A DNA stretch of 64,000 nucleotides, from positions 780 to 64,779 of the forward strand of contig DAIDGQ010000023.1 in assembly GCA_027452215.1 (NCBI GenBank). The letters run 5' to 3'. Below, one piece after another: positions 43,086-61,253 of the stretch. The DNA is from Granulicella sp. Lineage in GTDB: Bacteria > Acidobacteriota > Terriglobia > Terriglobales > Acidobacteriaceae. The notes under the pieces are model-generated. The model was not told the DNA's origin. It saw nothing but the letters and a program-made list of their open reading frames with translations, and did not search any database. How positions within the stretch are numbered: the stretch's first letter is position 1; every line of letters begins with the position of its first letter. The position numbers and the translations under genes were made by a program.

Positions 43086-43446
43086 GGAGCGGGGAGTGTC
43101 TGCCAAGGTGGACGGGGTTAGGTGGACCGTTTCGTTCCGTTACAGGGTGGCCCATCTTCTCAAGTTTTTCGCCCAGCGACCGATGAAGTCAGTACAAGGG
43201 CGTGTTGCATCCTGCATGTGCAGAACGCAACACGTGACCAACTGCTTTGTGCTGTGGTCGCGTACTGAAAGAGTTCATGGAGCGACTGCCGATATTTACC
43301 GATAGCAAGACGACGGGCGTGAGTGGGCGACGGTGGCAGGGTCACGAATCGCTCAACACATGCTGCAGGCTGAGGAACTCTTGGGAATGCCTGGTCATTT
43401 TGAGCACCTTCACGCAGCCATCGGGCATAGGAGAGACAACCTTTGG

Positions 43447-46400
43447 TTGAGGTGCCTGAGATGGAAACGGCGGTGTGGGGGTCGATGGAGACGGTGCCTG
43501 GCGAGCGTGGGAGTGGTGTTGTGCATGGGCATGGTCTGCGCATCCGGGGTGGCTCAGACTGCGAATGTTTTTTCTGGAACCACGGCGGTCGGTCAAACTT
43601 CTACGTCGATGAGCGTAGTTGTGACGATGGTCGCAGGGGGAACTGCTGGAGCACCTGTCGCGATGACACAGGGCCTGGCTAATTCTGATTTTGTGGTTGT
43701 GAGCGGAGGGTCTTGCTCAGCCGGCACCAGCTATAGCTCCGGACAGACGTGCACGGTGATGGTGCAATTCCAGCCGAAGTATCCGGGTACTCGAACTGGC
43801 GCGGTGGTGATGAAGACATCAGGCGGAAGCTTTATGGGGTCGACGCTGCTTGCCGGAGTTGGTGTGGGATCCTTGCCGGTGCTCGCGCCGGGTGCGATCA
43901 GCACAGTCGCTGGGGATGCGGATTGGATTTACCAGAGTGCGACGGATGGAGGATTGGCGACTTCTGCTCCGATCTTCCTGCCTACGGGCGTCGTCGCCGA
44001 CGCGATGGGGAACTTCTATATTGCGGATTCGCAGAACAACCGTATTCGTAAGGTGGACGTGAACAAACTGATCTCGACGGTGGCCGGTACGGGAACTCCT
44101 GGCTACGGAGGGGACGGGGGGCTGGCGATCAATGCGATGATCAACGTTCCGGCAGGGCTGGTGCTGGATGGCGCCGGTAATCTGTACTTTGCCGACAGTG
44201 GGAACCACATTGTTCGACGTATCGATGCATTTAGCGGAGTGATTACAACGGTGGCGGGAACTCCAGGGGTGCAGGGCTCTAGCGGCGACGGTGCTTCGGC
44301 TACGCAGGCGAAGCTCACCTTTCCCGAGGGCGTGGCTCTGGATGAGGCTGGGGACCTGTTGATTGCGGATACGGGGAATAACGAAATCCGAAAGGTCACT
44401 GCGACTGCGATTGGATTTGGAAATATAAGTAAGGTTGCTGGAACCGGAGCGGCGGGATTTAACGGCGATGGACAGGCGGCGACACTTGCGAGCTTGAATA
44501 GTCCTTGGAGCGTGGCGGTGGCTCAGGATGGGTCAATCTATATCGCTGATTTGACGAATAATCGCGTGCGCGAGGTGAACCTGTCAGGGATGATTTCGAC
44601 GGTTGCCGGTACGGGCCCTCGGGGATTTATGGGAGACGGCGGTCTCGCAACGCAGGCCGTGCTGGGCGAGCCTGCTGCTGTGGCGATCGATCCTGCTGGG
44701 GATCTCTATGTTGCCGACTCAGATAATAATCGTATTCGCGAGGTAAATGCGGCGACGGGTCTGATTGAGACCATCTGTGGAAACGCGAGCGAACAGTTCG
44801 CTGGCGATGGTGGACCGGCCAATCTTGCCAGCATGTATGGACCCTATGCTCTGTTCTTCGATCAGACGGGGAATCTATTTGTTGCGGATATGTTTCATAA
44901 CCGGATACGTCGGATCGACGCGTTGGCTGTCTCCTTGACGTACGCAACGATCAAGGTCGGGAACGTCTCCGCGCCGCAACCTGTGGTGCTTGTCGATGAT
45001 GGCAACGCTGATCTTATCTTGAGCCAGGCGACGATTGTGAATGCAGCGGAAGATGCGGGAACGACGACCTGTACGGCGGGAGCGGATATCCCGTCCGCCA
45101 CCACGTGCAGCATAGGCGCGTCGTTTGCTCCGAAGGTGATTGGAGATCCGGTTCTTGGTTCAATTGCGGTCAACTCGGTCGCAGGTACGACGGTGCCGTT
45201 GATTAGCCTTTCGGGACAAGTGCTTAGCATTACGCCGACGACCGTGGCGCTGACTTCGAGCGTGAATCCAAGCCTGGTGGGGGCGACGGTAAGGTTTACA
45301 GCGACGGTCAGCAATGGAGGCACGGCGCTGACGGGCACGATCGCTTTCTTTGATGGAGGTACACAGCTCTGTAGCGTGACGGTCGCGAATAGTGCGGCAG
45401 CGTGCAGCACGTCGGCGTTGACATTGGGGCAGCATAGCATTACGGCTGACTACTCGGGCGATGCGAACAATGCATCGAGTGTATCGGCCGTGCTGGTTCA
45501 AGTGGTCAAGCAAGCGCCTCTGCTGGTGCTAACGGTTGCACCGAATCCGACGGTCGTAACGACGAGCGTTACGCTGACGTTCGCGGCGACCGCACCGACG
45601 GGGACGCCGACGGGTTCGGTCACGTTTTATGATGGCGCCGTTGCACTTAGTTCGACCAACCTCTCGGGGTCGGGTGGTGCAGGTTACACCACGGCTCAGT
45701 TGAGTCCTGGGACGCATAGTCTTTCGGTACAGTATGCGGGGGACCTATCGAATGCATCGGGTCAGTCGAATGTAGTAAGCGAGGTGGTGCAGCAGGCGAC
45801 GACTGGAACGACACTGTCTTCGAGTAATGTGAGTGCGCCGGTGGGTTCTTTAGTGACCTTCACGGCTGCCGTTACCAGTACGAATGGGCCAGCGGCCACA
45901 GGGACGGTGCAGTTCAATGACGGCGGGACTTCGTTGGGAAGCAGCGCGGTCGGCAGTAATGGAACAGCGGTTTTATCGAGCGCGCTGCTTGCTCCGGGGG
46001 TGCATTCGATCGTCGCCGTCTATGGCGGAGATCAGGACGATGCTGGTAGTAGCTCGGCAGCCTTGGTTGAGACTATTCAACAGATTGCAACAGCAACGAC
46101 GGTGTCAGCGAACTTGAATCCTGTGTCTGCGGGAGCGATGCTGACGCTTACTGGATCCGTTACTGCCGTTGGCTCGTCAACGAATGGGGGCGTGATTAGT
46201 GGAGCGGTGATTTTTCGTGAAGGCCAAACTGTTCTCGGCACATCGGCGGTCGACGGCTTGGGTCACGCAACCGTCAACTTGAATACGCTGTCGGCAGGGT
46301 CTCACTCCATCGCGGCGTCGTATAGCGGCAACGTCAACTACGCAGCAAGTACTTCCGCAATTGTGATCGAGACGGTGCAGCCTACGGCAACGACGACGCT

Positions 46401-48894
46401 GCTGACCTCTGCGGCGACAACAACTCTGTCGGGACAGGCGGCGGTGTTCACGATCGCTGTGAGTAGTAGCACAGGTATTCCGGCTGGCAATGTCACGGTC
46501 AACGATGGCTCGGTGGGCATCGGACAGGTTCAACTGAATGCTCAAGGGATTGCGACGTTCACGAGCCTGCTGCTCTCTGCGGGAACACACTCGATCACGG
46601 CTGTCTACGATGGAAATGGAAACTATAATCCGAGCACATCCGGAGCGCTGCAGCATCTGGTTGTCCTGGCAACTCCTTCGTTGACCTTGAGTGGGCCGAG
46701 CACTCCGGTCAATGCTGGCTCTACCTTTGTCGCGATGGCCACGCTTAGTAGCAACGGTGTTACGCCGACGGGGGCGCTGACGCTACGTAATAACGGCATC
46801 GCGATAGCGACAGCGAGCGTCATGGGGAGTGGAACCTTTATCTTTCCGAACCTTAGCCTTGGCGTCGGGACATATCAGCTTACAGTGGCCTACAGCGGAG
46901 ATGCGAATAATGCGTCGGCCATCTCTTCGGCGTTACCGGTGACCGTCCAACTTACTCCAACGACGACTTCGCTTATAAGTAGCTCAAATCCAGTGACACT
47001 GAGCCAGAGCGTTAGCTTTACCGCGGTGACATCCGGTGGAGGGCCTGCTCCTACGGGTTTGATCAGATTTATGGATGGGAGTGTGGTTCTTGGCACATCC
47101 CCGATTGGTGCGAATGGAAGTGCAAGCCTAAACACCAGCACGCTGAGCTTTGGGATGCACTCTATCTCTGCGACTTATGAAGGTGATATCGACCATGCGC
47201 AGTCGACGTCCATTGTGTTGAGTGAGCGAGTTGTGCAAGCGGCCACAGAGGCGCTCAGTTCCAGCATGAATCCTTCCATATTTGGTGCGAGTGTGGTGTA
47301 CACGACCAAGGTAATGGGTGTAGGTTCCATCGTGCCTACGGGCACGGTTATCTATCGAGACGGATCAGTGGTGCTCGGGACGTCGGTTGTCGATGGGAGT
47401 GGCGTAGCCAGCTTGCAGAGTGCATCGCTGGTCGTAGGATCGCATACGATCTCTACCAGCTACAGCGGTGATACGAATTACTCTACTGCTTCATCAACGT
47501 TGACCCAAACAGTGCAGAGTGCAACGACGCAGATCACACTTATATCGAGCGCGAACCCGGCTATCTATGCGACGCCGCTGACATTCACTGCGACCGTTGT
47601 CGGAAATGGTGGAGTCGCGACAGGCTTGGTCACGTTCACCGATGATGGTGTGTCGATCGGCAGCGCTACGCTAAACTCCATCGGCATTGCGACCCTAACG
47701 CTCTCAACGCTCGCTCCTGGCGAACACGCAGTCGTTGCCAACTATGCGGGCGATAGCAATATCGGCGCGTCGAGTTCAACTCCACAGTTGGTGGGCGTGA
47801 AGCAGTTGACTTCGATTGCACTTACGTCAAGTGCAAACCCTGCCATGACACTTAGTTCGATTGTGCTTACCGCAACTGTGAGGAATGGTGGCGTTGGGGA
47901 GCCATCGGGGACTGTTATATTCACGGACGGATTTACCCAGTTAGGGACGACGTTGGTGAATGCAAATGGTGTTGCATCGATCACTGTTCCATCGCTCAGT
48001 GCGGGAAATCATTCTTTGTTGGCGAGTTATGGAGGAGATACTGAGGATTTTGCGAGCGCGTCGCAGGGTCTTGCACAGGGTGTGGAACTTCGCCCGACGA
48101 CGGTTGCGCTTACGAGTTCGAATACGGACCTGTCGAATCCGCAACAGGTTACCTTGATCTCCGAAGTGGGATGGACAGGCCCCACCGCTCCAACGGGTAC
48201 CGTGACCTTTGTAAGCGGCACACTGGTTCTTGGGAGTAGTCAGATCGATGCGATTGGTATAGCGACTCTCACCGTAATTCTTCAGCCGGGGACGGAGAGC
48301 GTGGTTGCAACGTATGGCGGCGATATCTCCTACGCGGGTTCGAATTCACTGGCGACAACGATCTCTGGAGGTGTGGCGACACAGTTCACGATTGAGATTA
48401 ATCCAATGAGTGTGACGTTCCCGACGACACAACACACTAGCATTGGTATCAATCTCACATCGTTGAAGGGCTTCTCGGATACGTTAGAGCTCGGTTGTCT
48501 GGGGCTCCCATTCGCCGCTACCTGCACGTTCAGTACGCCGCAGGTGGATTTGGCTGCGAATGGGAGTGCTTCGGTGCAGTTGGTGCTTGACACAGGGAAC
48601 CCGCTGGGCGCAGGGGCGGCTGCGAGACTCGAGGGTAGACAGTCGTCGGGAGTACTCCTTTGTATGCTGCCCTGCCTGCTGGGAGTCGGCTTTGGAGTGA
48701 GGCGGCGCAAGCTGAGAGCAGGTGCGTCCTTGCTGCTCTTAGGTCTGTTGGCAATGACAATTTCCGCAGTGGGCTGTTCTGGCCTGCACGTGAGTGGAAC
48801 TCCTCCGGGAACGTATACGTTCAAGGTTACGGCGTCCGGCAAGGGGAGTGGAACGACGTTATCGCAGCCGGTGACGCTGACGGTGACACCATGA
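43447..48894 (+). CDS. Large surface protein: NHL repeats plus ~10 bacterial Ig-like (group 3-type) repeats
   Basis: GDGG.A..A.L..P.G.A.D..G.LYIAD..N.RIR repeats, then T.L.SS.NP...F.DG...LG...G.HSI.A.Y.GD repeats. Start uncertain (TTG 43447 after AGGAGAG, or 43333). Confidence 0.92.
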   Translation: MRCLRWKRRCGGRWRRCLASVGVVLCMGMVCASGVAQTANVFSGTTAVGQTSTSMSVVVTMVAGGTAGAPVAMTQGLANSDFVVVSGGSCSAGTSYSSGQTCTVMVQFQPKYPGTRTGAVVMKTSGGSFMGSTLLAGVGVGSLPVLAPGAISTVAGDADWIYQSATDGGLATSAPIFLPTGVVADAMGNFYIADSQNNRIRKVDVNKLISTVAGTGTPGYGGDGGLAINAMINVPAGLVLDGAGNLYFADSGNHIVRRIDAFSGVITTVAGTPGVQGSSGDGASATQAKLTFPEGVALDEAGDLLIADTGNNEIRKVTATAIGFGNISKVAGTGAAGFNGDGQAATLASLNSPWSVAVAQDGSIYIADLTNNRVREVNLSGMISTVAGTGPRGFMGDGGLATQAVLGEPAAVAIDPAGDLYVADSDNNRIREVNAATGLIETICGNASEQFAGDGGPANLASMYGPYALFFDQTGNLFVADMFHNRIRRIDALAVSLTYATIKVGNVSAPQPVVLVDDGNADLILSQATIVNAAEDAGTTTCTAGADIPSATTCSIGASFAPKVIGDPVLGSIAVNSVAGTTVPLISLSGQVLSITPTTVALTSSVNPSLVGATVRFTATVSNGGTALTGTIAFFDGGTQLCSVTVANSAAACSTSALTLGQHSITADYSGDANNASSVSAVLVQVVKQAPLLVLTVAPNPTVVTTSVTLTFAATAPTGTPTGSVTFYDGAVALSSTNLSGSGGAGYTTAQLSPGTHSLSVQYAGDLSNASGQSNVVSEVVQQATTGTTLSSSNVSAPVGSLVTFTAAVTSTNGPAATGTVQFNDGGTSLGSSAVGSNGTAVLSSALLAPGVHSIVAVYGGDQDDAGSSSAALVETIQQIATATTVSANLNPVSAGAMLTLTGSVTAVGSSTNGGVISGAVIFREGQTVLGTSAVDGLGHATVNLNTLSAGSHSIAASYSGNVNYAASTSAIVIETVQPTATTTLLTSAATTTLSGQAAVFTIAVSSSTGIPAGNVTVNDGSVGIGQVQLNAQGIATFTSLLLSAGTHSITAVYDGNGNYNPSTSGALQHLVVLATPSLTLSGPSTPVNAGSTFVAMATLSSNGVTPTGALTLRNNGIAIATASVMGSGTFIFPNLSLGVGTYQLTVAYSGDANNASAISSALPVTVQLTPTTTSLISSSNPVTLSQSVSFTAVTSGGGPAPTGLIRFMDGSVVLGTSPIGANGSASLNTSTLSFGMHSISATYEGDIDHAQSTSIVLSERVVQAATEALSSSMNPSIFGASVVYTTKVMGVGSIVPTGTVIYRDGSVVLGTSVVDGSGVASLQSASLVVGSHTISTSYSGDTNYSTASSTLTQTVQSATTQITLISSANPAIYATPLTFTATVVGNGGVATGLVTFTDDGVSIGSATLNSIGIATLTLSTLAPGEHAVVANYAGDSNIGASSSTPQLVGVKQLTSIALTSSANPAMTLSSIVLTATVRNGGVGEPSGTVIFTDGFTQLGTTLVNANGVASITVPSLSAGNHSLLASYGGDTEDFASASQGLAQGVELRPTTVALTSSNTDLSNPQQVTLISEVGWTGPTAPTGTVTFVSGTLVLGSSQIDAIGIATLTVILQPGTESVVATYGGDISYAGSNSLATTISGGVATQFTIEINPMSVTFPTTQHTSIGINLTSLKGFSDTLELGCLGLPFAATCTFSTPQVDLAANGSASVQLVLDTGNPLGAGAAARLEGRQSSGVLLCMLPCLLGVGFGVRRRKLRAGASLLLLGLLAMTISAVGCSGLHVSGTPPGTYTFKVTASGKGSGTTLSQPVTLTVTP

Positions 48895-49499: not shown

Positions 49500-50757
49500 G
49501 TGACGTGGATGGCGGGAGGGCTGGACGGGAGACGCATGAGCGATGCGGGTGCTCCGATGTGCCACAGAGCGCTCTCCGATAGTCCATGCCGCACCTCCGG
49601 CTACGTTCGAAGGCAGCCACTGGAACAGATCCGTCTTGCTAACGCAATTGAGAATCGACCAGTTCTTTTGGAAGATATTGCTCCTTGCCCGCTAGCGATT
49701 GGAAGATTTAGAGTGCCGAGAAGTGCAGCGCGACCTCACGCTGCGTCGCCCATGCATGGCGGCGCAAGCCGGCCTTCATGCAGCCGTAGCTTGGGCGTTT
49801 GACGTGAAGGTAAAGATTCTTCGTGATCCTTTTGTGTCGAGGCTTATCGAAGCTGAAGCGACATTTCAGAATGAGACGTATGCTCAACCTTAGTTCGCAC
49901 GCTGGACTTGTTCCCGGACTTTGATGCTTAATCTCCGCCGAGATAGCCGTTCAGTAGGTTGTGTTTGCAGGTCATGTACGGCATATTCAGTTCGGCTCAC
50001 TGGATCAACTTAGGGGGCATTGGCACCCTGCATCAACCCGTAATGGCCTCCACGGGCGATTATTCGACCCTGAGGATGCATCTCTCGCGGTCCTCATTCT
50101 GCGGTATTCAGGCAATGTGTAACAGTCGGCCGCGGTCGTAGATGTCGAGTGAATATGACCCTCCTTGTGGTGCACGATAAGGTGCCCCCAAAGGCTGAAG
50201 GAGCACCGTCTTATTTCGGAGTCTGATAGATGTTTGATTCGCGGGATGCAGATATTTTTCTGAGCCTTTTCCTGATCCGAGTCCGACGGCTCGAACTGTT
50301 GCGGCAAGAAACGAATCCGTAAGATGATAGACATTCCACCGGTCGGGTAGCTTGACTGCCGTTAATTGGCCATCGCTCTGTTGTATGCAGCTGCTTCTCG
50401 ATGAGAGTTTGAGCCGCCAGTGTTTGTTGCTGCGCCGCTCCCGCCCCAGAACTAGCTGAATAGTTTGATCACGGAGAGTTGGGACACAGCGAAGGAGCGC
50501 TGCGGGGCGCTTCTAGTAGTTGGAGGAAAGCGTCGGCTCTGGGAGCGGCTTCGAGCTGCTCTGTGAATTGATTGCTCCGAGCCAATGTAATTTGTGAGCC
50601 TTTGAACGTGTTATTTGCGCCATGTTGCTAGTGAGCTATTATGAACATACTTTTGTCTCGTAAATTGTTTCAATATATGTGAATCGTCTGAATCTGAGTT
50701 CAGCATCTTCGCGTAAGATCGCGCAAGTCTCCCTAGTCCGAAATGTAAGGATGAGCA

Positions 50758-52077
50758 ATGAACAAGATCTCTAAAACTGTAGTAATTCTCTCTGTCTTGA
50801 TTGGTTATCAGCAGGCACATGCAGTACCAAGCTTTGCTCGGCAGACAGGTCTTTCCTGTAATGTCTGCCATAGTAACCCTCCCGAGCTAACGGCATTTGG
50901 CAGAGAGTTCAAATTGCGGGGATATGTTCTGAGCGATGTAACGCCTGCAGAAAAAGTAGGGAATGCGAAAGATTTAATCCTGTCGAAATATATTCCGTTG
51001 TCGTTCATGATTCTTGCTTCCGACACTGCATTTCAGGATGTCGTGCCGGGTACTCAAAATAGTGCTGCGGGATTTCCTCAGCAACTAAGTCTGTTTTTAG
51101 GCGGAGGACTGGCATCCCACTTCGGTGCACTAGCACAGGTCACCTATAGTCATTCGAGCGACATATTTGCGATGGATAACACGGATCTGCGCTACGCAAA
51201 TCAGACCACGCTGGGGGGGAAGGAACTGGATTACGGAATAACGCTGAACAATAATCCTGGTGTTGAGGATCTTTGGAATAGCACCCCTGTCTGGGGGTTT
51301 CCATGGATATCGTCCGAGTCTAGTGTTGGATCGATTGCATCGACCCTAATTGATGGAACGCTTGGGGCGGATGTCGTCGGGGCTGGTGGATACAGTATGT
51401 GGAATAACCATCTCTATACAGCGCTTACTGCGTATAGAAGTGAGCACGAGGGTGGGCCCGCTCCGATCGATGGACTCAATTACCAGTACAACATCAGTGG
51501 CGCTGCGCCTTACTGGCGTGCGGCGTGGCAGCAGTCCTGGGGAGCAAACTATTTAATGGTCGGGACTTATGGGTTGGCGGTCAATTCCCATCCTTTCTCG
51601 ATTACGGGACCGGTGGACCGCTATATTGACCCGTCCTTTGATTTTCAGTATGAGCGACCGTTTGGAGCGAACCTTCTTGATGCTCACGGAACCTGGATAC
51701 ACGAGAGCTCAAATCTGGGGGCTACGCTCGCCACGGGTGGAGCAAGCGTGGCACACCATAATCTGAATACATTCAAGCTCGATACCACCTACCACTGGTC
51801 GAGTAAGTACAGTGCCACAGGGGCTCTTTTCGCGACGACGGGAAGTGCAGATCCGTTACTCTATGCTTCAGCTCCCGTGACCGGGAGTGCGAACGGTAGC
51901 CCGAATACGGGCGGATATATTGCGCAGCTAGCTTATTGGCCAGTGCAGAATATCGACATCAGTGTCAATTACACGGGATACACGAAGTTCAATGGTGCGA
52001 CCACCAACTATGATGGCGCTAATCGAAATGCATCGGACAATAACACGGTGTACATGGCACTGTGGCTGATTTTCTAG
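50758..52077 (+). CDS. Cyc2-like fused monoheme cytochrome c / outer-membrane porin
   Basis: Signal peptide ending AHA, then VPSFARQTGLSCNVCH...PELTAFGREFKLRGY; the rest is aromatic-rich beta-strands ending in F. Confidence 0.85.
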   Translation: MNKISKTVVILSVLIGYQQAHAVPSFARQTGLSCNVCHSNPPELTAFGREFKLRGYVLSDVTPAEKVGNAKDLILSKYIPLSFMILASDTAFQDVVPGTQNSAAGFPQQLSLFLGGGLASHFGALAQVTYSHSSDIFAMDNTDLRYANQTTLGGKELDYGITLNNNPGVEDLWNSTPVWGFPWISSESSVGSIASTLIDGTLGADVVGAGGYSMWNNHLYTALTAYRSEHEGGPAPIDGLNYQYNISGAAPYWRAAWQQSWGANYLMVGTYGLAVNSHPFSITGPVDRYIDPSFDFQYERPFGANLLDAHGTWIHESSNLGATLATGGASVAHHNLNTFKLDTTYHWSSKYSATGALFATTGSADPLLYASAPVTGSANGSPNTGGYIAQLAYWPVQNIDISVNYTGYTKFNGATTNYDGANRNASDNNTVYMALWLIF

Positions 52078-52085
52078 GAGAACGT

Positions 52086-52640
52086 ATGGAGCAAGAACCC
52101 GCAGTACTGGAAGTCAATCCGAAGGAGACGATTGTCATCAACCGGCGATCGTTTTTTGGAGCTCTGCTAAGTATTGGAGCGGCTGGAATGGGAGCCATTC
52201 TTGCGGTGCCGGTGCTCCGCTATGTTCTTTATCCGCTCTATGCGAAATCGAGTAAGAATGCGTGGTCTCCGCTTGGAGATATTAGCGTCTTTTCGAACTT
52301 GTCTAAGCCTGTGATGAAGCCCCTTGACCTAAAGCAGGTCGATGGATGGCGCGAAGTAGACACGTCGCAAACGGTCTATGTGACCAAGACCGCGCAGGGT
52401 GATATGGGGGTGCTCTCAGCGATCTGCCCTCATATGGGTTGCACAATTGCATGGCATGAGGGGCAGGATGAGTTTTACTGCCCATGCCACGGGAGCGTAT
52501 TCAGTCCGGATGGGACGCATGTTTCTGGGCCATCACCGCGCGACATGGATCAACTTCCGCACAAAGTTGTTGACGGCAAACTGCTTGTCAATTTTGAGTA
52601 TTTTCGGGAGAACGTTCCCAACCAGGAAGTTTTGAGTTAG
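52086..52640 (+). CDS. Rieske 2Fe-2S subunit of a quinol:cytochrome c oxidoreductase
   Basis: RBS AGGAG; Tat motif RRSFF plus TM helix; CPHMGC and CPCHGS boxes; GPSPR. Confidence 0.95.
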   Translation: MEQEPAVLEVNPKETIVINRRSFFGALLSIGAAGMGAILAVPVLRYVLYPLYAKSSKNAWSPLGDISVFSNLSKPVMKPLDLKQVDGWREVDTSQTVYVTKTAQGDMGVLSAICPHMGCTIAWHEGQDEFYCPCHGSVFSPDGTHVSGPSPRDMDQLPHKVVDGKLLVNFEYFRENVPNQEVLS

Positions 52641-52648
52641 GTGGCGAT

Positions 52649-55324
52649 GTGGACGATCCAATGAAAAGTACACCTGACAAGAAGGCACCATCGGGCCTTT
52701 ATGGATGGTTCAATGAACGCACTGGCGTTCGGAGCCTGATGCATGCGTCGTTAGATGAGCCGATTCCGGGCGGTGCACGCCTGGCCTATATTTTCGGGTC
52801 GGGACTTATCTTTATTTTTATCTCGCAGGTAATTACGGGGCTGTGTCTTGCTCTGTATTATGTCCCGTCGGTAGAGTCGGCACATACCAGTGTGGCCTAT
52901 ATCACGAAGCAGGTTGCGGCCGGACAGTTTCTACGGAGTCTGCACTACTATGGCTCCAGCGCGATGATTATCGTGCTGTTTCTGCACTTTTTGCAGACGT
53001 TTATTTATGGATCGTTCAAAGGGCGGCGGGAATTGCTCTGGATTTCGGGTGCGTTTCTTTCCTTGCTGGTGCTGGGGATGGGGTTCACGGGATATCTGCT
53101 TCCGTGGGACCAGACCGCGTACTTTGCTACGGCCGTCGGAACGAACATTGTGGGGGAAGTTCCGTTCATCGGGCAATGGCTTACAGATATGCTACGCGGT
53201 GGGGATACGCTGGGGACGCTTACGCTGTCGCGTTTTTATGTAGCGCATGTTTTTCTGATTCCGGGGCTAATCTTTCTCTTTATAGGGACGCATATCGCAC
53301 TGTTCAGGAAGGCTGGACCGGCGGGGCCTATCAGCGAAGACCCAGTTCATCCGAAGCTACCACCAGAGAGTTTCTATCCTCGCCAGGTCATTATGGACAT
53401 GGCGTTTGCGCTACTGCTGATGGTGGGATTAGGGATTCTGGCTTACTTTCATCCGGTACAGTTGGGCCCAATCGCTGATCCGAGTGATCCCAAGTTTGTG
53501 CCGAGGCCTGAGTGGTACTACCTTCCAATGTTCGAGTGGCTGAAGTTCTGGTCAAGCCGGATGGAGGTCTTCGCTGTTGTTGTCATTCCTGCGATTCTGG
53601 CGCTGCTGTTTTTCCTGATACCCTTCTTGGATCGCAAGCTGGAACGGCGACCGTGGCGCAGGCCGATTCCTCTTCTGGCCGTCTCTATTGTTTTGGTTGG
53701 AATGATCTTCCTCGGGTTCAAGAGCCACCTGGATGATTTGCGCGATCATAGCGTTGCTGAGCAGTTGGCATTTCAGGAAAAGCAAGCGGAGGATTACACT
53801 AAGGCACCGTTCATTCCGAGTATGGAATCAGCGAGCGGGCAACCGCTTGCTTCGGGGCCGGTAGATCCGTTGGTGGCTCGGGGACGCGGGGTCTTCAATG
53901 CCAAGGGATGCTCCGGTTGCCATGGGCAGAATGGTACGGGCACTGCATTGGCTCCGAGTCTTGTTGGAGTCACTGCCAAGTATCCTTTGCCTCAGATTAC
54001 GGAACTGCTACATCATCCAAATCCGCGGATGCTGGCAGGCCATATGCCGTCGTTCGATATGCCTGCACCAGAGATGGCAGCACTGTTTAGCTATCTGAGC
54101 AGCCTTGGGACGAGCGCGGCGAATGTGCCCGCAGTTGCCTCGGTTCCAGAGAGTGCTCCGCAGGCGGAGGCTGGAGTTGGAGCGGGCCAGGATGGCGCGA
54201 CTCCGGCGATGGTACCTGCTGTGAAGATGTCGGCTCAAGCAACAGCGGGGGCAGAGATTTTTCAGAGTCACAGTTGTGTGGCGTGCCATGGAGCTGCAGG
54301 AGCCGGAACGGCTCGTGTGCCAGCGATGGCCGGGCTGATAGCGAAGAACTCGGATGCGCAGTTGATGCAGTTGGTGCAGTCTCCTAACGCGCGGATGAAA
54401 GCTGGGGGTATGCCACCGCTGGTGGCGACGCCGGCGGAAGTGCGCTCCGTGATTGCGTATCTTCGAACGCTGTCGCAGGGGAGCAACGCGAAACAACAGC
54501 CGATGTCACAAGGAGTGGGCGGGACAGATGCGTCTGCACAGAGCGACCTCTCGACTCCTTATGTTTCGCCGTCACAGCCAGCTTCTGCAGCGCCGTCGGC
54601 GAGCGCTGCCGCGCCGACTTCTGCACCGACTTCTGCGCCGACGGCACAGACGACCACGCAATCGGCGGCTACGAGTGCGTCGACGTTACCGGGACGTCAA
54701 TTGTTTTTGGAGAATGGCTGCCTTGCTTGTCATGGACGAGATGCTCGTGGGACACACTTTGCTCCTTCTTTGATAGGGATTACGAAGAGGTATCCTCCGA
54801 CGCAGCTGACGTACCTATTGCATCATCCGAGGAAGGAGATGACTGCGGGAGGTATGCCTGCGGTGACTCTGGATGACGCAAAGATGAAGCAATTGGTGGA
54901 CTATCTATCGAGCCTCGGAGTTGCGCCGCCGCCGGAAGTAACGGCCGCCGGGCATGCCGCGCAGCCCTCCGGCGGGCATTCTGCGAATACTGCAGGAGGA
55001 GGTGGTGCAACGACTGTGGCTGCGGCTCCTAAGCCTGCGCCTGTGGTTCCGCTTAGCGCTGATGCGATTCGAGGCAGGGTGATCTTCCAGCAAAACCGTT
55101 GCGAGACCTGCCATGGAATCGATGGTTTGCATGGAACGGTTGCGGCTCCAGGACTGGCTGGTATGGCGTCGGTGCTGCCTGCGGCGGTGCTGGATAATCT
55201 GCTGCAACACCACAGCACGCAGATGAAGAATGGCAACATGCCGCCGACGAATATGAGCGCTGCAAACAGGAAGGCGGTTGTTGCTTATATTCGCTCGATG
55301 CCTTCGCCGCCGGATACGCAGTAG
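52649..55324 (+). CDS. Cytochrome b (b6 + subunit IV-type) fused to four cytochrome c domains
   Basis: Four heme-b His residues, GFTGYLLPWDQ, PEWY; then CSGCH, CVACH, CLACH, CETCH, each with a downstream MP ligand. Start GTG 52649 or ATG 52661. Confidence 0.93.
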   Translation: MDDPMKSTPDKKAPSGLYGWFNERTGVRSLMHASLDEPIPGGARLAYIFGSGLIFIFISQVITGLCLALYYVPSVESAHTSVAYITKQVAAGQFLRSLHYYGSSAMIIVLFLHFLQTFIYGSFKGRRELLWISGAFLSLLVLGMGFTGYLLPWDQTAYFATAVGTNIVGEVPFIGQWLTDMLRGGDTLGTLTLSRFYVAHVFLIPGLIFLFIGTHIALFRKAGPAGPISEDPVHPKLPPESFYPRQVIMDMAFALLLMVGLGILAYFHPVQLGPIADPSDPKFVPRPEWYYLPMFEWLKFWSSRMEVFAVVVIPAILALLFFLIPFLDRKLERRPWRRPIPLLAVSIVLVGMIFLGFKSHLDDLRDHSVAEQLAFQEKQAEDYTKAPFIPSMESASGQPLASGPVDPLVARGRGVFNAKGCSGCHGQNGTGTALAPSLVGVTAKYPLPQITELLHHPNPRMLAGHMPSFDMPAPEMAALFSYLSSLGTSAANVPAVASVPESAPQAEAGVGAGQDGATPAMVPAVKMSAQATAGAEIFQSHSCVACHGAAGAGTARVPAMAGLIAKNSDAQLMQLVQSPNARMKAGGMPPLVATPAEVRSVIAYLRTLSQGSNAKQQPMSQGVGGTDASAQSDLSTPYVSPSQPASAAPSASAAAPTSAPTSAPTAQTTTQSAATSASTLPGRQLFLENGCLACHGRDARGTHFAPSLIGITKRYPPTQLTYLLHHPRKEMTAGGMPAVTLDDAKMKQLVDYLSSLGVAPPPEVTAAGHAAQPSGGHSANTAGGGGATTVAAAPKPAPVVPLSADAIRGRVIFQQNRCETCHGIDGLHGTVAAPGLAGMASVLPAAVLDNLLQHHSTQMKNGNMPPTNMSAANRKAVVAYIRSMPSPPDTQ

Positions 55325-55453: not shown

Positions 55454-56755
55454 CTATATTGCCAAGTTTGCGGCTACGGACGCGCTAAGGGCGATCAAGG
55501 TTGCGTCGCTGCCAGGTGGGCCAACGAGTTGCAGACCTCCTGTCGGATTTTTTGGATCGGCGGATGGAAGCGTGACGACGGGGAGGCCTGCGAGGCTGAT
55601 GGGTGAAGTGTAGCGGAGGATCCGCGCTCGGGTCTGAGTGTGGTCGGCGCCAGCGATGAGGGCGGACATTGGAGCGCAGGGCAAGAGTAGGTAATCGAAG
55701 GACTGGAAGAGGGCCTGGGTCGTTGAGCGGAAGGCGTCGAGTTGGTGGTGGAGGCTTGTGAGCTCAGATGTGGCGATGGTGGAGCCCCAGGAGAGACGCT
55801 CGGCAATCATGGGTTCGAAATGATGGAAGTGCCCTTGGTGGAGGGCGGCTGCTTCGCTGGCCTGGATCGGCGCAAAGATCGACATCGCGTCGGCCCAGTA
55901 GGTGGCGTCGAAAGTGAATAGAGTTGCGTTGTGGGCTTGGAAGCGGGACTGCCAAAGCTGGAGAGTTACGCGGACGTCGGGGTCGCAGTCGTGTAGGAAG
56001 GACTGGTCGGGAGTGGCGATGCGGAGTCGATCTATGGCGGGAGCGGTTGCGATAGGGAGATCGAAGAGAGCGTGGCCGAGGAGGGGGCCGTCGGCGAGGT
56101 CGCGATAGAGCCAGCCGATGGTATCGAATGAGGACGCAAGATGGTAACCTCCGCGCCATATGTCGGGGGTGTTGAAGATGAGGGAAGAGCGATAGCCGGC
56201 GAGGCCGCAGAGAGCGGCAGGGGCGCGGACGGAGCCACCGGTGTCGGTCCCAATCGCGGCGAGGGCCGAGCCTTCCTGGACGGTGGCAGCGGCGCCGCTG
56301 GAGGAGCCACCGGTGAGGTGAGTTGAGTTAAGGGGCTGGAGGCAGTCGCCGAAGTTGCTGTTCTCGCCGGTGATGCCGTAGGCGAGTTGATGGAGATTTG
56401 TTTTACCGGTGATGATGGCTCCGGCAGAGCGAAGGCGAGCGGCGAGTGCGCTATCGGTGGTGGCGATGCCGTGGTGGTCCCGGTAAAACGTGGAACCGCA
56501 GGACGTGGAGAACCCGACGAGGTCAAAGCAGTCTTTGAGGGAGACGGGAATACCCCAGAGAGGTTGGTGGGCAATGCTTTTGCGGCGAAGATCGCTGGCT
56601 TCTTTGCGGGACCAGTCTAGATTTTGGGCAACGTAGACGTTGTGATGGAGGTTGCTATTAGCATGCTCGAGTGCGGTGTCCAATTCCGCGAGCGGGGTGG
56701 ATTTGTCGCTTAAATATCGCTGGCGGAGCGCGGTGATGGAAGAGGCAACGTGCAT
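55454..56755 (-). CDS. Amidase signature family protein
   Basis: GIPVSLKD, GKTNL, GGSSSGAAA, IGTDTGGSVRAPAALCG. Confidence 0.95.
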   Translation of the reverse strand: MHVASSITALRQRYLSDKSTPLAELDTALEHANSNLHHNVYVAQNLDWSRKEASDLRRKSIAHQPLWGIPVSLKDCFDLVGFSTSCGSTFYRDHHGIATTDSALAARLRSAGAIITGKTNLHQLAYGITGENSNFGDCLQPLNSTHLTGGSSSGAAATVQEGSALAAIGTDTGGSVRAPAALCGLAGYRSSLIFNTPDIWRGGYHLASSFDTIGWLYRDLADGPLLGHALFDLPIATAPAIDRLRIATPDQSFLHDCDPDVRVTLQLWQSRFQAHNATLFTFDATYWADAMSIFAPIQASEAAALHQGHFHHFEPMIAERLSWGSTIATSELTSLHHQLDAFRSTTQALFQSFDYLLLPCAPMSALIAGADHTQTRARILRYTSPISLAGLPVVTLPSADPKNPTGGLQLVGPPGSDATLIALSASVAANLAI

Positions 56756-58404: not shown

Positions 58405-60114
58405 ATGCGTAAGACTAAGTTGAATAGCGGCGGCTTCTTTGTAAACGACGAAGACCGGCAGATGCTGGTTCTAGGTTACCGGGGCACGCTGCAGCCGGAC
58501 CGTCATTCGTGCGGGGGTGAGAGCGAGGCAATTGCGAGTGACGGATCAGTTTGCGTGGGATCACCTCCGCAGATGGAGGGTCTGATTGCGCCGTTGCTCG
58601 TCGGAGCGCTGCATGGACTGGACCGTCGAGTGCCAAGTCGACATAGGGCTTTAGGCGGGGAGGCGATTTCTGTCGATGGCTTACTCGAACTGCTTCTGGA
58701 GCGACTACAAGGGATTTTGACGTTGCCAGTTGCAGCTTGCCTTGCACGAGGGGAGGCCTCGACGGCCGCGATAGAGCTCTCTCTTCGAGTTGAATTTCCG
58801 AGGCTTGCTCCGCTGTTGCAGCAAGCAGTTTCTGAGTGGGTGGCAGCAACGGCGACGTTTCACGAGCGGCTGCATCGGGACAGAACTCGGTTGGCGAGGT
58901 GGCTAGGTTTTGCAACCCTTCCCCCCGTGGAATCTGTGGCGGGGACTACCTCCGATACACATCCAGGTGGACATGGGGTGCTACGGGTTATTTTCAAAGG
59001 CGGCCGCAGCGTTTATTACAAGCCTCGCTCCATAAGCGGGGAGTGGCTCTGGCATCGGCTCTTGGAAATAATTGCCGAGATGGATCCAGCATTGCGTTTG
59101 CAAGCGGGAAGGGTGCTGGAGGGTAGCAGGCCGGATCGATATGGCTGGGCGGAATCTGTATTGGTGCGAGGACACGCAGATGGCCCCGCTGATGGGATTG
59201 GATACTGGCACGCTGCCGGTGCGATGTTGTGCCTGGCGCATCATGTCAGTCTGACGGACTTGCACCTTGGCAATGTGCTTGCTACAGCGAATGGTCCTGC
59301 CGTTACGGACGCAGAATGTCTTGGAGTGCCGCGCTTACACGATGTTTCTGGCCGCAGGCCTCCCCGCGAGAATGAGCCTGTCGCATGCTTCTTTGAGGCT
59401 CTGATGTGCACTGGGCTGCTTCTGGACCGAGGTGTTCGGGACGTGCCGGATGTATCGGGGCTGTTTGGATCTGGGGGACCGGTGTCGGACTTAGGGCTGC
59501 CGCAGTGGATTTTGGAGCCTGATGGACGTTGTCGCATGATGGTGGCACCGGCGGCACTTCTGGAGCATGGCAATGCCCCGAACAGGGTGTCTATGCTTGC
59601 GGTGTTGCCCGAGCTGTTGGCAGGATATCGTCACGCTGCAGGTGTACTGTTGCGCAGTCGGAAGGCGCTCATCTCAACGGGGTCTCGCTGGCGCTTCGTT
59701 CTCGAGAGGAATCATGCGCCCCGGATAGTGATTCGCGATACGTTCCGCTATAGCCTTTTGCTGAGTCGTTTCCTGGAGCCGAGGTATCTTCGCGCGGGAG
59801 GTGTGCGACAGAGCGATCTTCGCAGAGTTCTTGAATCGGATACCTCGGCGGCGTTTCCCAAAGCACTTTTGCGCGCAGAGGTGCATGCGCTGGAAAGGCT
59901 GCATATTCCGCGATTGATTGCATTGCCTGGCACTCGAACACTTGCAAGCGGGTCGGGGCGTGCCCTGGCCAGGAACTTTGCGGCCTGCACTCCGTCAGAG
60001 GAGGTCATTCGCCGAATGGAGGAGCTATCTGCGGAGTTGGTTGAGGCGGTCCATGTTCCAGCGCTTGTGTTGGCGATGCTCCGTTCGGGGGCTCGTTCGC
60101 AGCGAGATCACTGA
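58405..60114 (+). CDS. Stand-alone LanM-type dehydratase domain (DUF4135), no LanC cyclase domain
   Basis: SDTHPGG..V....F..G..VYYKPR, YGWAE.V, TDLHLGN, P.VTDAECL, RIVIRDT..Y; the protein stops at 569 aa. Confidence 0.85.
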   Translation: MRKTKLNSGGFFVNDEDRQMLVLGYRGTLQPDRHSCGGESEAIASDGSVCVGSPPQMEGLIAPLLVGALHGLDRRVPSRHRALGGEAISVDGLLELLLERLQGILTLPVAACLARGEASTAAIELSLRVEFPRLAPLLQQAVSEWVAATATFHERLHRDRTRLARWLGFATLPPVESVAGTTSDTHPGGHGVLRVIFKGGRSVYYKPRSISGEWLWHRLLEIIAEMDPALRLQAGRVLEGSRPDRYGWAESVLVRGHADGPADGIGYWHAAGAMLCLAHHVSLTDLHLGNVLATANGPAVTDAECLGVPRLHDVSGRRPPRENEPVACFFEALMCTGLLLDRGVRDVPDVSGLFGSGGPVSDLGLPQWILEPDGRCRMMVAPAALLEHGNAPNRVSMLAVLPELLAGYRHAAGVLLRSRKALISTGSRWRFVLERNHAPRIVIRDTFRYSLLLSRFLEPRYLRAGGVRQSDLRRVLESDTSAAFPKALLRAEVHALERLHIPRLIALPGTRTLASGSGRALARNFAACTPSEEVIRRMEELSAELVEAVHVPALVLAMLRSGARSQRDH

Positions 60115-60237
60115 GTCTGATTTTGCTCTTAACCATTTGCTTGTTGTGTGCGACTCTGGGTGCATGATAGGATGCAGCCACTCCTGTGGCGCATCTACAG
60201 GCTAATTACAACATTTCCAAGCATCGAAAGGAAGATT

Positions 60238-60441
60238 ATGACAAATCTTGAGCGTCTGCAGGGAGCTGGACTGATTGAAGTAAACCATCCTCTCACTACC
60301 GATGAAATCAGCAATATCAATCAATTGAGCTCTGCCGAAGTGGATGCGATTATTTCCGTACGCACTAAGCTTGGCGACGATTTCTTTACTCGTAAAGTAG
60401 AGGTTGGTGGATCCCATCGCATGGGGACGATGGTTTTTTGA
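60238..60441 (+). CDS. 67-aa peptide, candidate RiPP precursor or small partner protein
   Basis: RBS AAAGGAAG; MTNLERLQGAGLI...LSSAEVDAIISVRTKL...VEVGGSHRMGTMVF; no Cys. Confidence 0.8.
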   Translation: MTNLERLQGAGLIEVNHPLTTDEISNINQLSSAEVDAIISVRTKLGDDFFTRKVEVGGSHRMGTMVF

Positions 60442-60475
60442 GGCGATAGAAATCTGTTCCAAGGAGCGGTACTGA

Positions 60476-61228
60476 GTGACTGCAATTCAGGATAAAACTG
60501 AAATGACTACACAAAGCCAACGGCTTCGTAATGTTCTATCGCTCGCACAAAAGGGTCTTACATCACGGATTCAGGAGGTGTGGTTCCATCCGAGGTTCGG
60601 AGAGTTATATCCAGAGTTCTTATTCGCGATGTATGGCGTAACTGTTGCATCGGCTCCTGCGATGCGTCTCGCGGCGCGTTGCTGTGCCGAAGCAGGGACC
60701 TCTGACCCCCTGAACGAGTGGCTGCAAGAGTATTATCTGGAGCACGCTTCTGAAGAGGATGATCATGCGGACTGGCTTCTCAGCGATCTGCGTTCCCTTG
60801 GCGTGGCACGGGAACGCGTCCTTGAGCGGCTGCCTTATCCGAGTATTGCAGCGCTGGTTGGTTCGCAGTATTACTGGATGCAGCATGTTCATCCGGTCGC
60901 CTATCTTGGCTTCATCGCGGTACTGGAGGCCCCTACGCATATAGAGTTTTTGCGGGAGGTGTCAGAGCGAAGCGGCATTCCTTTGGCTAGTATGTCCTGC
61001 CATGCGAGGCATGCAGAGCTTGATCTTGGACATGTGGCTGAGTTTGATGCGACTCTGGATGCACTCCCGCTGACCCCAAAGCATCGGGATCTGATCACGG
61101 TAAGCGCGATTACGACCATTGGTCACATGGAGCGAGTATTTGTGGATATACTGGAACACTTCGAGCGCATCCGCAACCCGGTAAACGCCACCACGATTTT
61201 TACCTCTGGCGATACCGTTCTCGTTTGA
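60476..61228 (+). CDS. Heme-oxygenase-like diiron oxidase (iron-containing redox enzyme family)
   Basis: RBS AAGGAG; EHASEEDDH, LG.IAVLE and HAELD.GH metal-ligand motifs; all-helical character. Confidence 0.85.
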   Translation: MTAIQDKTEMTTQSQRLRNVLSLAQKGLTSRIQEVWFHPRFGELYPEFLFAMYGVTVASAPAMRLAARCCAEAGTSDPLNEWLQEYYLEHASEEDDHADWLLSDLRSLGVARERVLERLPYPSIAALVGSQYYWMQHVHPVAYLGFIAVLEAPTHIEFLREVSERSGIPLASMSCHARHAELDLGHVAEFDATLDALPLTPKHRDLITVSAITTIGHMERVFVDILEHFERIRNPVNATTIFTSGDTVLV

Positions 61229-61253
61229 TCCCGCGTTTGACTGAGTGTGATTA

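Follow-up and report, generated by a model that had tools for sequence, protein, structure and literature searches.

Linkage of a Cyc2-family cytochrome-porin to a Rieske/cytochrome b complex with four tethered cytochrome c domains in Granulicella sp. and other Acidobacteriaceae: a possible route from menaquinol to soluble Fe(III)

Why should an acidobacterium that looks like a heterotroph carry a gene of the Cyc2 family, to which the outer-membrane Fe(II) oxidase of iron-oxidizing bacteria belongs, directly beside genes for its own Rieske/cytochrome b complex? This question is raised by a locus of Granulicella sp. in a stretch of 64,000 nucleotides (nt), hereafter the window (positions 780 to 64779 of contig DAIDGQ010000023.1, here C23). 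The contig belongs to a 2.5-Mb metagenome-assembled genome (MAG; GCA_027452215.1) that is 59% complete, and the proteins of this MAG resemble Acidobacteriaceae records in sequence matches. Three genes on the plus strand (Table 1) are located between the gene of a 1853-amino-acid (aa) Ig-like/NHL protein, which ends at 48894, and a convergent amidase gene (55454–56755, minus strand). Both intergenic gaps are 8 nt long, and Shine–Dalgarno-like letters, TAGGAGAACGTATG and TAGGTGGCGATGTG, follow immediately after the stop codons. The listing of open reading frames (ORFs) and their translations agreed with an earlier note, made from the sequence alone, in the coordinates, the three genes and the 8-nt gaps. 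That note had read the locus as a self-contained conduit between the cell surface and the quinone pool, for either electron uptake or the reduction of extracellular metals or humic substances. The Cyc2 family, the Rieske/cytochrome b complex and a functional linkage between them were supported by the present analysis, which bears out that reading in part. Our preferred reading, to which we assign a probability of about 0.42, is that the three-gene module may constitute an energy-conserving electron route from menaquinol to soluble Fe(III).

According to Keffer et al. 2021 (PMC8406198), a Cyc2 protein is defined by a single CxxCH, the motif AxPxFAR[Q/K][T/Y], which was termed Cyc2-unique, a PxL downstream of the haem site, a minimum of 365 aa and a 16-strand porin similar to OprO and OprP. 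The product of the first gene, Cyc2A, is composed of a signal peptide (aa 1–22), the cytochrome signature (aa 22–56) and a 16-strand barrel (aa ~80–439) with a C-terminal Phe. Its translation starts with MNKISKTVVILSVLIGYQQAHA/VPSFARQTGLSCNVCHSNPPELTAFGREFKLRGY; the signal peptide terminates at AHA/V, and AVPSFARQTGLSCNVCHSNPPELTAFGREFKLRGY comes next. The signal peptide is accompanied by a single N-terminal CxxCH (CNVCH, aa 34–38), and AVPSFARQT and PEL, at aa 22–30 and 42–44, match the AxPxFAR[Q/K][T/Y] and PxL motifs at positions that are kept across 103 relatives. In the alignment of these 103 family members, which are 32–87% identical overall, Q29, C34, C37, H38, L44, G48, R49, F51 and K52 were invariant. 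Because these residues are invariant across otherwise divergent members, the motif is not due to chance. The N-terminal signature described in the earlier note is thus present, except that the spacer between CxxCH and PxL consists of three residues and not four; in the wording of Keffer et al. (PMC8406198), as in Cyc2A, the P of PxL is the fourth residue after the His.

The AlphaFold2 model of Cyc2A (predicted local distance difference test, pLDDT, 93.4; predicted template modelling score, pTM, 0.88) contained 16 long strands, which, together with the terminus ...LWLIF, confirmed the earlier description of a barrel ending in Phe. At 439 aa with 16 long modelled strands, the protein corresponds in length and architecture to the OprO/OprP-like barrel of Cyc2. 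A Foldseek search with the model retrieved 16-strand porins, with OprP (2o4v) ranked second and OprO (4rjw) twelfth. In the ESM-atlas, the neighbours were ‘cytochrome c family’ clusters of Acidobacteriota and Pseudomonadota (template modelling score, TM, 0.92–0.93) and a Porin_O_P cluster at TM 0.71. Searches of Pfam, NCBIfam and PDB sequences with Cyc2A yielded no matches, and its relatives amounted to 2815 representatives at 50% clustering (E ≤ 0.001). Judged from its sequence and model against the motif, length and porin definition of Keffer et al., Cyc2A is a member of the Cyc2 family. Conduits of the MtrAB/PioAB/MtoAB type are built from a decahaem cytochrome inside a 26-strand porin; Cyc2A has one haem and 16 strands, and no multihaem protein is encoded in the module.

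The second gene encodes a Rieske protein with the cluster motifs CPHMGC and CPCHGSVF. The pattern CxHxGC ... CxCH (CPHMGC, CPCHGS), the Pfam family PF00355 and the twin-arginine translocation (Tat) motif NRRSFF are those of an exported Rieske subunit. Its start was set at the ATG located 8 nt past the cyc2 stop codon, behind GGAG; the longest ORF opens at GTG 52062. The third gene (cytb::c) encodes 891 aa, consisting of cytochrome b and, past the last membrane helix, four class I cytochrome c domains. Pfam detected Cytochrome_B (3.6e-47), Cytochrom_B_C (2.1e-06) and four Cytochrom_C domains, and the NCBIfam models of cytochrome b6 (3.7e-62) and ExtP (1.1e-56) both matched under their cut-offs. 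The haem b ligands are His99/His113 and His200/His215, the second pair being separated by 14 residues (b6-type), and the Qo motif PEWY is found at aa 287–290. No cysteine for haem ci was seen on inspection of the cytochrome b sequence. All four His ligands and PEWY were invariant in 41 aligned orthologs, and PEWY was retained in 48 of 49 orthologs.

Each of the c domains carries a CxxCH and a GxMP methionine, and the four together represent the c-type cytochrome acceptor of a Rieske/cytochrome b complex. The haem-binding Cys/His residues and the Met ligands of all four domains were invariant in the 41 orthologs, whereas the linkers between the domains (42, 69 and 51 residues, rich in Ala, Pro, Ser and Thr) vary freely. 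Domain 4 was the most conserved, with 28 invariant columns compared with 11–17 in the other c domains. Four CxxCH motifs were present in 45 of the 49 orthologs, and three of the remaining four are cut by contig ends. The Pfam domains, Rieske motifs, haem ligands and PEWY therefore bear out the Rieske/cytochrome b complex proposed in the earlier note, in which neither the c-type carrier fused to cytochrome b nor a second, larger Cyc2–Rieske/cytochrome b cluster of this genome (see below) had been mentioned. A GltD/NfnB-like flavo-FeS subunit and a multihaem c, the components of the anammox-type NAD(P)-linked complex, were absent from 50758–55324 and its flanks.

The conservation of the locus was examined by a scan of a genome collection (one genome per species; the AVPSFARQT region as query; a 37-sequence alignment), in which the best 80 of at least 590 relatives were compared. 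Genes for the Rieske protein and cytb::c were located directly downstream in every locus with a Cyc2 at least 66% identical to Cyc2A, where the contig reaches (approximately 50 species-level genomes). In one 57% relative, a MAG of Acidobacterium sp., they were located just upstream of the Cyc2 gene. The median gaps within the module were 8 nt, equal to the cyc2–Rieske gap of the present locus, and ~14 nt over 42 loci. The trio excepted, the flanking ORFs of the window had no homolog in the flanks of 50 other loci, and no other gene recurred in more than 7 loci. Since the trio is adjacent wherever the contig reaches while the flanks differ, it is a self-contained module placed in varying contexts. 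The term ‘self-contained’ of the earlier note accordingly holds at the gene level, the survey of synteny having found the trio adjacent in all checkable loci with unshared flanks. A predicted functional link between the Cyc2 and Rieske/cytb::c genes is thereby supported.

In a maximum-likelihood tree, the module-type Cyc2s formed one clade with a Shimodaira–Hasegawa-like approximate likelihood ratio test (SH-aLRT) value of 99, and they are of single evolutionary origin. The sister clade (SH-aLRT 99) was composed of Cyc2s encoded next to a cupredoxin gene, after which genes for a GltD-like flavo-FeS protein, a Rieske protein, cytochrome b6, subunit IV and an octahaem cytochrome are often found. 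Because the module clade is sister to a clade that is also linked to Rieske/cytochrome b, the linkage of this Cyc2 lineage to such complexes is old and maintained. These results bear on the alternative that the genes are neighbours without a shared pathway, the Rieske/cytb::c4 complex feeding oxidases and Cyc2 acting independently. ‘PEWY-cyt c’ fusions of cytochrome b and cytochrome c do exist in Acidobacteria without Cyc2 (PMC4122944). However, the trio stays together in every checkable locus of about 50 species, with 8-nt gaps and with all flanks different, the module Cyc2s form a single clade, and the same and other genomes contain a second, independently organised Cyc2–Rieske/cytochrome b cluster; we consider mere adjacency highly improbable.

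In this MAG, the second cluster is located on contig C45:186000–196000 (L032:635–9437, minus strand) and encodes a Cyc2 paralog (50% identical), a cupredoxin, a GltD-like NAD(P) flavo-FeS protein, a Rieske protein, cytochrome b6, subunit IV, an 8-haem c and a monohaem c. The same gene order was observed in at least 8 other Acidobacteriota genomes. This ‘type B’ operon (Cyc2–cupredoxin–GltD-like flavoprotein–Rieske–cytochrome b6–subunit IV–octahaem c) shares with the module a sister-clade Cyc2 (~50%) joined to a dedicated Rieske/cytochrome b in Acidobacteriota, and its core resembles the NAD(P)-linked Rieske/cytochrome b complexes of the anammox bacterium Kuenenia (Kuste4569–4574). In contrast to the eight genes of type B, the module has three and is devoid of the cupredoxin, the NAD(P) flavoprotein and the multihaem c. 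Its cytochrome b and subunit IV are fused, four monohaem domains are appended, and the two cytochromes b are 39.5% identical.

The carriers of the module include the cultured Acidipila rosea DSM 103428 (71%), a Granulicella MAG (90%), a Terracidiphilus MAG and MAGs from peat, palsa and soil. Of 400 sampled Acidobacteriaceae species, about 22 possessed a Cyc2 of the module clade, and the sister type was present in about 50; across the phylum, some Cyc2-like match was found in 113 of 401 genomes. Two records fall outside this taxonomic range. A Cyc2 in a genome binned as Candidatus Limnocylindrales of the Chloroflexota (L104; DATLTU010000014.1) was placed in the tree at 0.09 changes per column from that of an Acidobacteriota MAG (L105), and the Cyc2 of a record binned as Caldimonas (P0093) is 73% identical to Cyc2A. 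The presence of these acidobacterial-looking Cyc2s in the Limnocylindrales and Caldimonas bins is likely due to mis-binning or recent transfer.

Is the Rieske/cytochrome b complex of the module merely the general one of the cell? Three cytochrome b genes were found in the MAG, namely those of the module, the C45 cluster and a cluster on contig C37. The C37 cluster (L140:6833–14838, minus strand) encodes caa3 oxidase subunits together with a dihaem c and a Rieske protein (CPCHGGAY). Its cytochrome b is fused to one cytochrome c and has PKPDF in place of the usual PEWY. This Rieske–cytb::c–dihaem c–caa3 cluster is evidently the housekeeping chain. The cytochrome b of the module is ~42% identical to the housekeeping one and 39.5% identical to that of C45 (N part). 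Because a separate housekeeping bc complex sits beside the caa3 oxidase, the complex of the module is distinct and dedicated, and Cyc2 holds in the module the position that the oxidase holds in the housekeeping cluster. Four haem-copper oxidases were found in the MAG. RuBisCO and cytochrome bd were not found in this 59%-complete genome, and RuBisCO had no match in the 4.2-Mb genome of Acidipila rosea, whose sole Cyc2 homolog is that of the module. The title of the species description terms A. rosea an acidophilic chemoorganotroph. The absence of RuBisCO matches in both genomes, the four oxidases and the separate bc–caa3 cluster are in accord with the heterotrophic host that the earlier note had presumed.

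The best public holders of module DNA were mine-drainage metagenomes, with pieces at least 99% identical. In addition, two rRNA-depleted mine-drainage RNA libraries contained contigs at least 99% identical inside all three genes. The two near-identical contigs at the gene junctions extended fewer than about 31 letters on one side and were not counted as bridging. Only for a 91%-identical relative in an RNA library of a mixed culture does a single contig, of 2985 nt, reach across both junctions; it covers the 3' end of cyc2, the Rieske gene and most of cytb. The RNA-library contigs are compatible with expression and co-transcription of the module.

How might the three proteins work together? 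In the inner membrane, the dedicated Rieske/cytochrome b complex would oxidise menaquinol via a Q-cycle, and its electron acceptor would be the four monohaem class I domains, which extend on flexible linkers of 42–69 residues from the C-terminus of cytochrome b. This tether would carry electrons over the periplasm to the lone haem of the Cyc2-type outer-membrane porin. The tethered c domains would stand in for the soluble Cyc1, high-potential iron–sulfur protein (HiPIP) or cupredoxin adjoining other cyc2 genes; unlike its Proteobacterial homologs, Cyc2A has no soluble cytochrome gene at its side within the module. Since a single haem is situated inside a 16-strand pore, the partner of the porin is expected to be a small dissolved species. 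The most likely flow would run from quinol through the Rieske protein and the c domains to Cyc2 and on to dissolved Fe(III), and the module would serve as a ‘terminal Fe(III) reductase branch’ of an otherwise aerobic heterotroph when oxygen is scarce. That the c domains touch Cyc2, that iron is the substrate and that electrons run in this direction is what we infer; a predicted complex of Cyc2A and c domain 4 scored 0.00, which counts neither for nor against binding. More tentatively still, we propose that the module may be a minimal three-protein proton-motive respiratory branch across both membranes, in which the tethered four-cytochrome line reaches Cyc2 without a soluble carrier and true Fe(III) respiration results.

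Fe(III) dissolves in acidic, iron-rich water, where its potential is very high. Acidobacteriaceae use menaquinone (~−75 mV), and the Fe3+/Fe2+ couple stands at ~+770 mV at low pH. With menaquinone at about −0.07 V and acid Fe(II) at about +0.77 V, electrons would pass downhill throughout the forward route, with energy conserved by the Q-cycle, and their reverse flow would carry a very high cost. Furthermore, the direction from quinol to Fe(III) is favoured because the carriers are heterotroph-like and have no apparent need for reverse electron flow, because Fe(III) is soluble at the pH of the habitat, because certain Acidobacteriaceae and Acidiphilium reduce Fe(III) at low oxygen, and because Cyc2 replaces the oxidase relative to the housekeeping cluster. 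Fe(III) reduction under low oxygen is known in Acidobacteriaceae (Acidobacterium capsulatum and Acidicapsa) and Acidiphilium, and in A. ferrooxidans the bc1 complex and Cyc2-type cytochromes have been proposed to function in Fe(III) reduction (PMC8790237, PMC10715153).

The opposite direction would be Fe(II) oxidation or electron uptake, in which Cyc2 oxidises dissolved Fe(II) and the electrons pass to the tethered c domains and then either to a haem-copper oxidase or backwards via Rieske/cytochrome b to quinones. Fe(II) oxidation is the sole activity of Cyc2 shown by experiment (PMC8406198), iron oxidisers are thought to run bc1 complexes in reverse (PMC13741234), and this organism occurs in Fe(II)-rich mine drainage and has four haem-copper oxidases in its genome. 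Moreover, the linkage of the sister Cyc2 clade to cupredoxins parallels that of A. ferrooxidans Cyc2 to rusticyanin. On the other hand, RuBisCO was found in neither the MAG nor Acidipila rosea, so that there is no obvious need for reverse flow, which from acid Fe(II) with menaquinone would, by the established potentials, be an uphill step of ~0.8 V. If an oxidase were the sink, for energy gain, lithoheterotrophy or Fe(II) detoxification, nothing evident would explain why a dedicated quinol oxidase is co-inherited in every checkable locus. We regard Fe(II) oxidation as somewhat less probable than the preferred reading, and as its main and serious rival.

It is also conceivable that the wiring is as proposed and that the partner is a small soluble species other than iron, for which humic or quinone shuttles, Mn, Cu, and oxyanions of sulfur or nitrogen would be candidates, or that the haem-porin acts as a safety valve or redox sensor of the quinone pool. 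Cyc2 homologs are widespread in heterotrophs without known iron metabolism (Ralstonia, Caballeronia and Paraburkholderia), and many carriers of the module are MAGs from humic-rich peat and soil. In Geobacter, the porin–Rieske–cytochrome b cluster extHIJKLMNOPQS is tied to the reduction of selenite and tellurite (PMC5877670), and with the ExtP model the b-type portion of gene 3 reaches 192 bits. Against these points stand the fully conserved Cyc2 signature region, the iron-rich mine drainage that is the nearest sampled environment and the lack of positive evidence for any other substrate, and we judge a non-iron partner to be unlikely.

Several points weigh against the preferred reading. The distribution of the module is patchy: of eight other genomes sampled from its own genus, it was found in two and not in six, and the patchiness implies an accessory trait. 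Many carrier genomes derive from ordinary soils and peat, in which the solubility of Fe(III) is lower. To date, experiments on Cyc2 have in each case tested it as an Fe(II) oxidase (Keffer 2021, PMC8406198); its role as a reductase is a proposal. The Rieske motif CPCHGSVF leaves the redox potential without a clear verdict. Finally, contigs of RNA libraries cannot prove a single transcript, DNA carry-over is possible, and the uncovered parts mean nothing.

Comparison with known systems indicates which parts of the module are familiar. With the Cyc2 of the A. ferrooxidans rus operon, Mariprofundus Cyc2PV-1 and Leptospirillum Cyt572 (Keffer et al. 2021), Cyc2A shares the signal peptide, the single N-terminal CxxCH, AxPxFARQT and PxL, a length of ~440 aa and the 16-strand OprO/OprP-like barrel. 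The known cyc2 genes are located beside genes for soluble carriers (cyc1, rusticyanin and HiPIP) and oxidases, and none of them is reported to share an operon with a Rieske/cytochrome b complex of its own, as the gene does here. Unlike the known Cyc2 iron oxidisers, the host is a heterotrophic acidobacterium. No paper tying Cyc2 to Acidobacteriaceae or to an adjacent Rieske/cytochrome b complex was found in the literature; metagenome surveys list unclassified Acidobacteriota MAGs as predicted iron oxidisers.

Full-length homologs of Cyc2A in named organisms were found on plasmids or chromids of Ralstonia solanacearum (42%; 1e-88), Caballeronia (40%) and Acidiphilium cryptum JF-5 (pACRY03; 34%, pairwise E 1e-72); across the 34–42% identity of these homologs, tblastn E-values ranged from 6e-59 to 1e-88. 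Ralstonia is named among the oversampled genera thinned from the Cyc2 set of Keffer et al. (PMC8406198), and Cyc2 homologs have been reported in Acetobacteraceae (PMC10715153). In all three, the homolog precedes a gene for a small c-type cytochrome. The cyc2 gene comes before that of a c-type cytochrome in A. cryptum JF-5 and stands between a HiPIP gene and a cytochrome c gene in Caballeronia, with no Rieske/cytochrome b adjacent; a small c-type cytochrome or HiPIP beside cyc2 is the classical Cyc2 neighbourhood (PMC10715153). Acidiphilium has in common with the proposed role of the module that it reduces Fe(III) at low pH. A further homolog, on plasmid unnamed1 of ‘Acidithiobacillus ferrooxidans YQ-N3’ (CP084173.1, L144), was rejected as an Acidithiobacillus Cyc2, being embedded in 11 kb of the same gene order as pACRY03 (NC_009469.1, L142). 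The two plasmids have the same gene order and replicon type around the Cyc2 homolog, which suggests either contamination of the culture by Acidiphilium or a transfer of the plasmid.

The ext cluster of Geobacter sulfurreducens (extHIJKLMNOPQS; PMC5877670) is conserved and likewise joins genes for c-type cytochromes to those for an outer-membrane porin, the Rieske protein ExtO and the cytochrome b ExtP. It comprises 11 genes, and ExtI, unlike Cyc2A, is a haem-free porin that works with multihaem cytochromes and a rhodanese; the b part of gene 3 is not an ExtP equivalog, because its 192 bits are under the curated cut-off of 290. The ‘PEWY-cyt c’ clade of Kao and Hunte 2014 (PMC4122944) shares with gene 3 a PEWY cytochrome b with C-terminal class I cytochrome c, and such fusions occur in Acidobacteria, Planctomycetes, Nitrospira and Firmicutes carrying several bc complexes (PMC4122944). 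Gene 3, likened to this clade by its features, has four c domains on long linkers instead of a single one and is obligately linked to Cyc2. The components are thus of known kinds, namely the Cyc2 family, Rieske/cytochrome b complexes and cytochrome b–cytochrome c fusions.

Table 1. Features of the Cyc2–Rieske/cytb::c locus in window coordinates
Feature	Position	Strand	Evidence
cyc2A, Cyc2-family fused monohaem cytochrome-porin, 439 aa	50758..52077	+	translation, family alignment, AlphaFold2, Foldseek, ESM-atlas
Cyc2 signature AVPSFARQT-GLS-CNVCH-SNP-PEL-TA-FG-RE-F-KLR-GY	50821..50925	+	translation, alignment, motif of Keffer et al. 2021 (PMC8406198)
Rieske [2Fe-2S] subunit	52086..52640	+	Pfam PF00355 8.9e-11; NCBIfam b6f/bc1 Rieske models below cut-offs; Tat motif NRRSFF, membrane anchor
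Gene 3 (cytb::c)	52649..55324	+	
Cytochrome b core (b6-like N part fused to subunit-IV-like C part)	52649..53743	+	Pfam, NCBIfam, ortholog invariance
Class I cytochrome c domain 1, CSGCH at 421, Met466	53876..54097	+	Pfam and ortholog alignment
Class I cytochrome c domain 2, CVACH at 543, Met588; preceded by 42-aa Ala/Pro/Ser/Thr-rich linker	54224..54493	+	
Class I cytochrome c domain 3, CLACH at 691, Met736; preceded by 69-aa low-complexity linker	54701..54907	+	
Class I cytochrome c domain 4, CETCH at 818, Met864; preceded by 51-aa linker	55061..55324	+	
Candidate operator (speculative), imperfect palindrome GTGAGCTATTATGAACAT	50631..50648	+	~110 nt upstream of cyc2 start

The imperfect palindrome upstream of cyc2A may be an operator. 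A similar palindrome was present at the same place in 5–6 orthologous upstream regions, one of which (L057) has the perfect form ATGAGCA-N4-TGCTCAT. With a matrix built from those sites, the present site gave the best score in the whole MAG, a result that is circular, and a scan of the 59%-complete MAG with the position weight matrix revealed no convincing regulon of further copies. Scanning for promoters and terminators gave nothing above the shuffled expectation. The guanine-plus-cytosine (GC) content of the module is 0.505–0.53, compared with 0.598 genome-wide in this MAG, and its GC skew is far below that of the neighbouring 43 kb; the other carriers have no such oddity of composition. The odd composition here and the patchy distribution suggest that the module is gained and lost as a unit. 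No marks of mobile elements (tRNA genes, Rfam families, or flanking direct or inverted repeats) were found around it.

Over tens of kb in window positions 1–44000 the GC skew is +0.3 to +0.45, and long blocks of ~±0.3 occur genome-wide; in the region of the module (46–54 kb) both the skew, by a wide margin, and the GC content are lower. The strand asymmetry looks replication-linked, because plus- and minus-strand genes, the amidase gene among the latter, share one sign of skew. The upstream neighbour (43333–48894) encodes a protein of secreted type, in which 11 Ig-like domains (Big_3_5) occur together with NHL/teneurin-like repeats, and is followed by 1.9 kb without a recognisable gene. The region 58405–63668 encodes a DUF4135 protein, next to it an ‘iron-containing redox enzyme’ (Haem_oxygenas_2) and then a TPR-repeat Ser/Thr kinase. 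DUF4135 is the N-domain of LanM-type dehydratases. The DUF4135 protein has no cyclase domain, and the region is a possible peptide-modification cluster.

Acidic soils, peat and mine drainage have the Acidobacteriaceae among their most abundant bacteria, and several isolates of this family reduce Fe(III). Cyc2 homologs serve as a marker of iron oxidation in metagenomes, and most of them are found in organisms never shown to oxidise iron; the module cautions that a Cyc2 match need not mean iron oxidation. It joins one lineage of Cyc2 with a predicted quinol-oxidising, energy-conserving complex, and its presence in the culturable Acidipila rosea DSM 103428 makes testable the role of Cyc2 in heterotrophs, its possible action as a reductase and the crossing of the periplasm without a soluble carrier. 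If the proposed route from menaquinol to soluble Fe(III) is true, the ‘aerobic heterotrophic’ Acidobacteriaceae that abound in mine drainage, peat and acid soils would gain a true respiration of soluble Fe(III), and the Cyc2 family would be physiologically able to work as a reductase.

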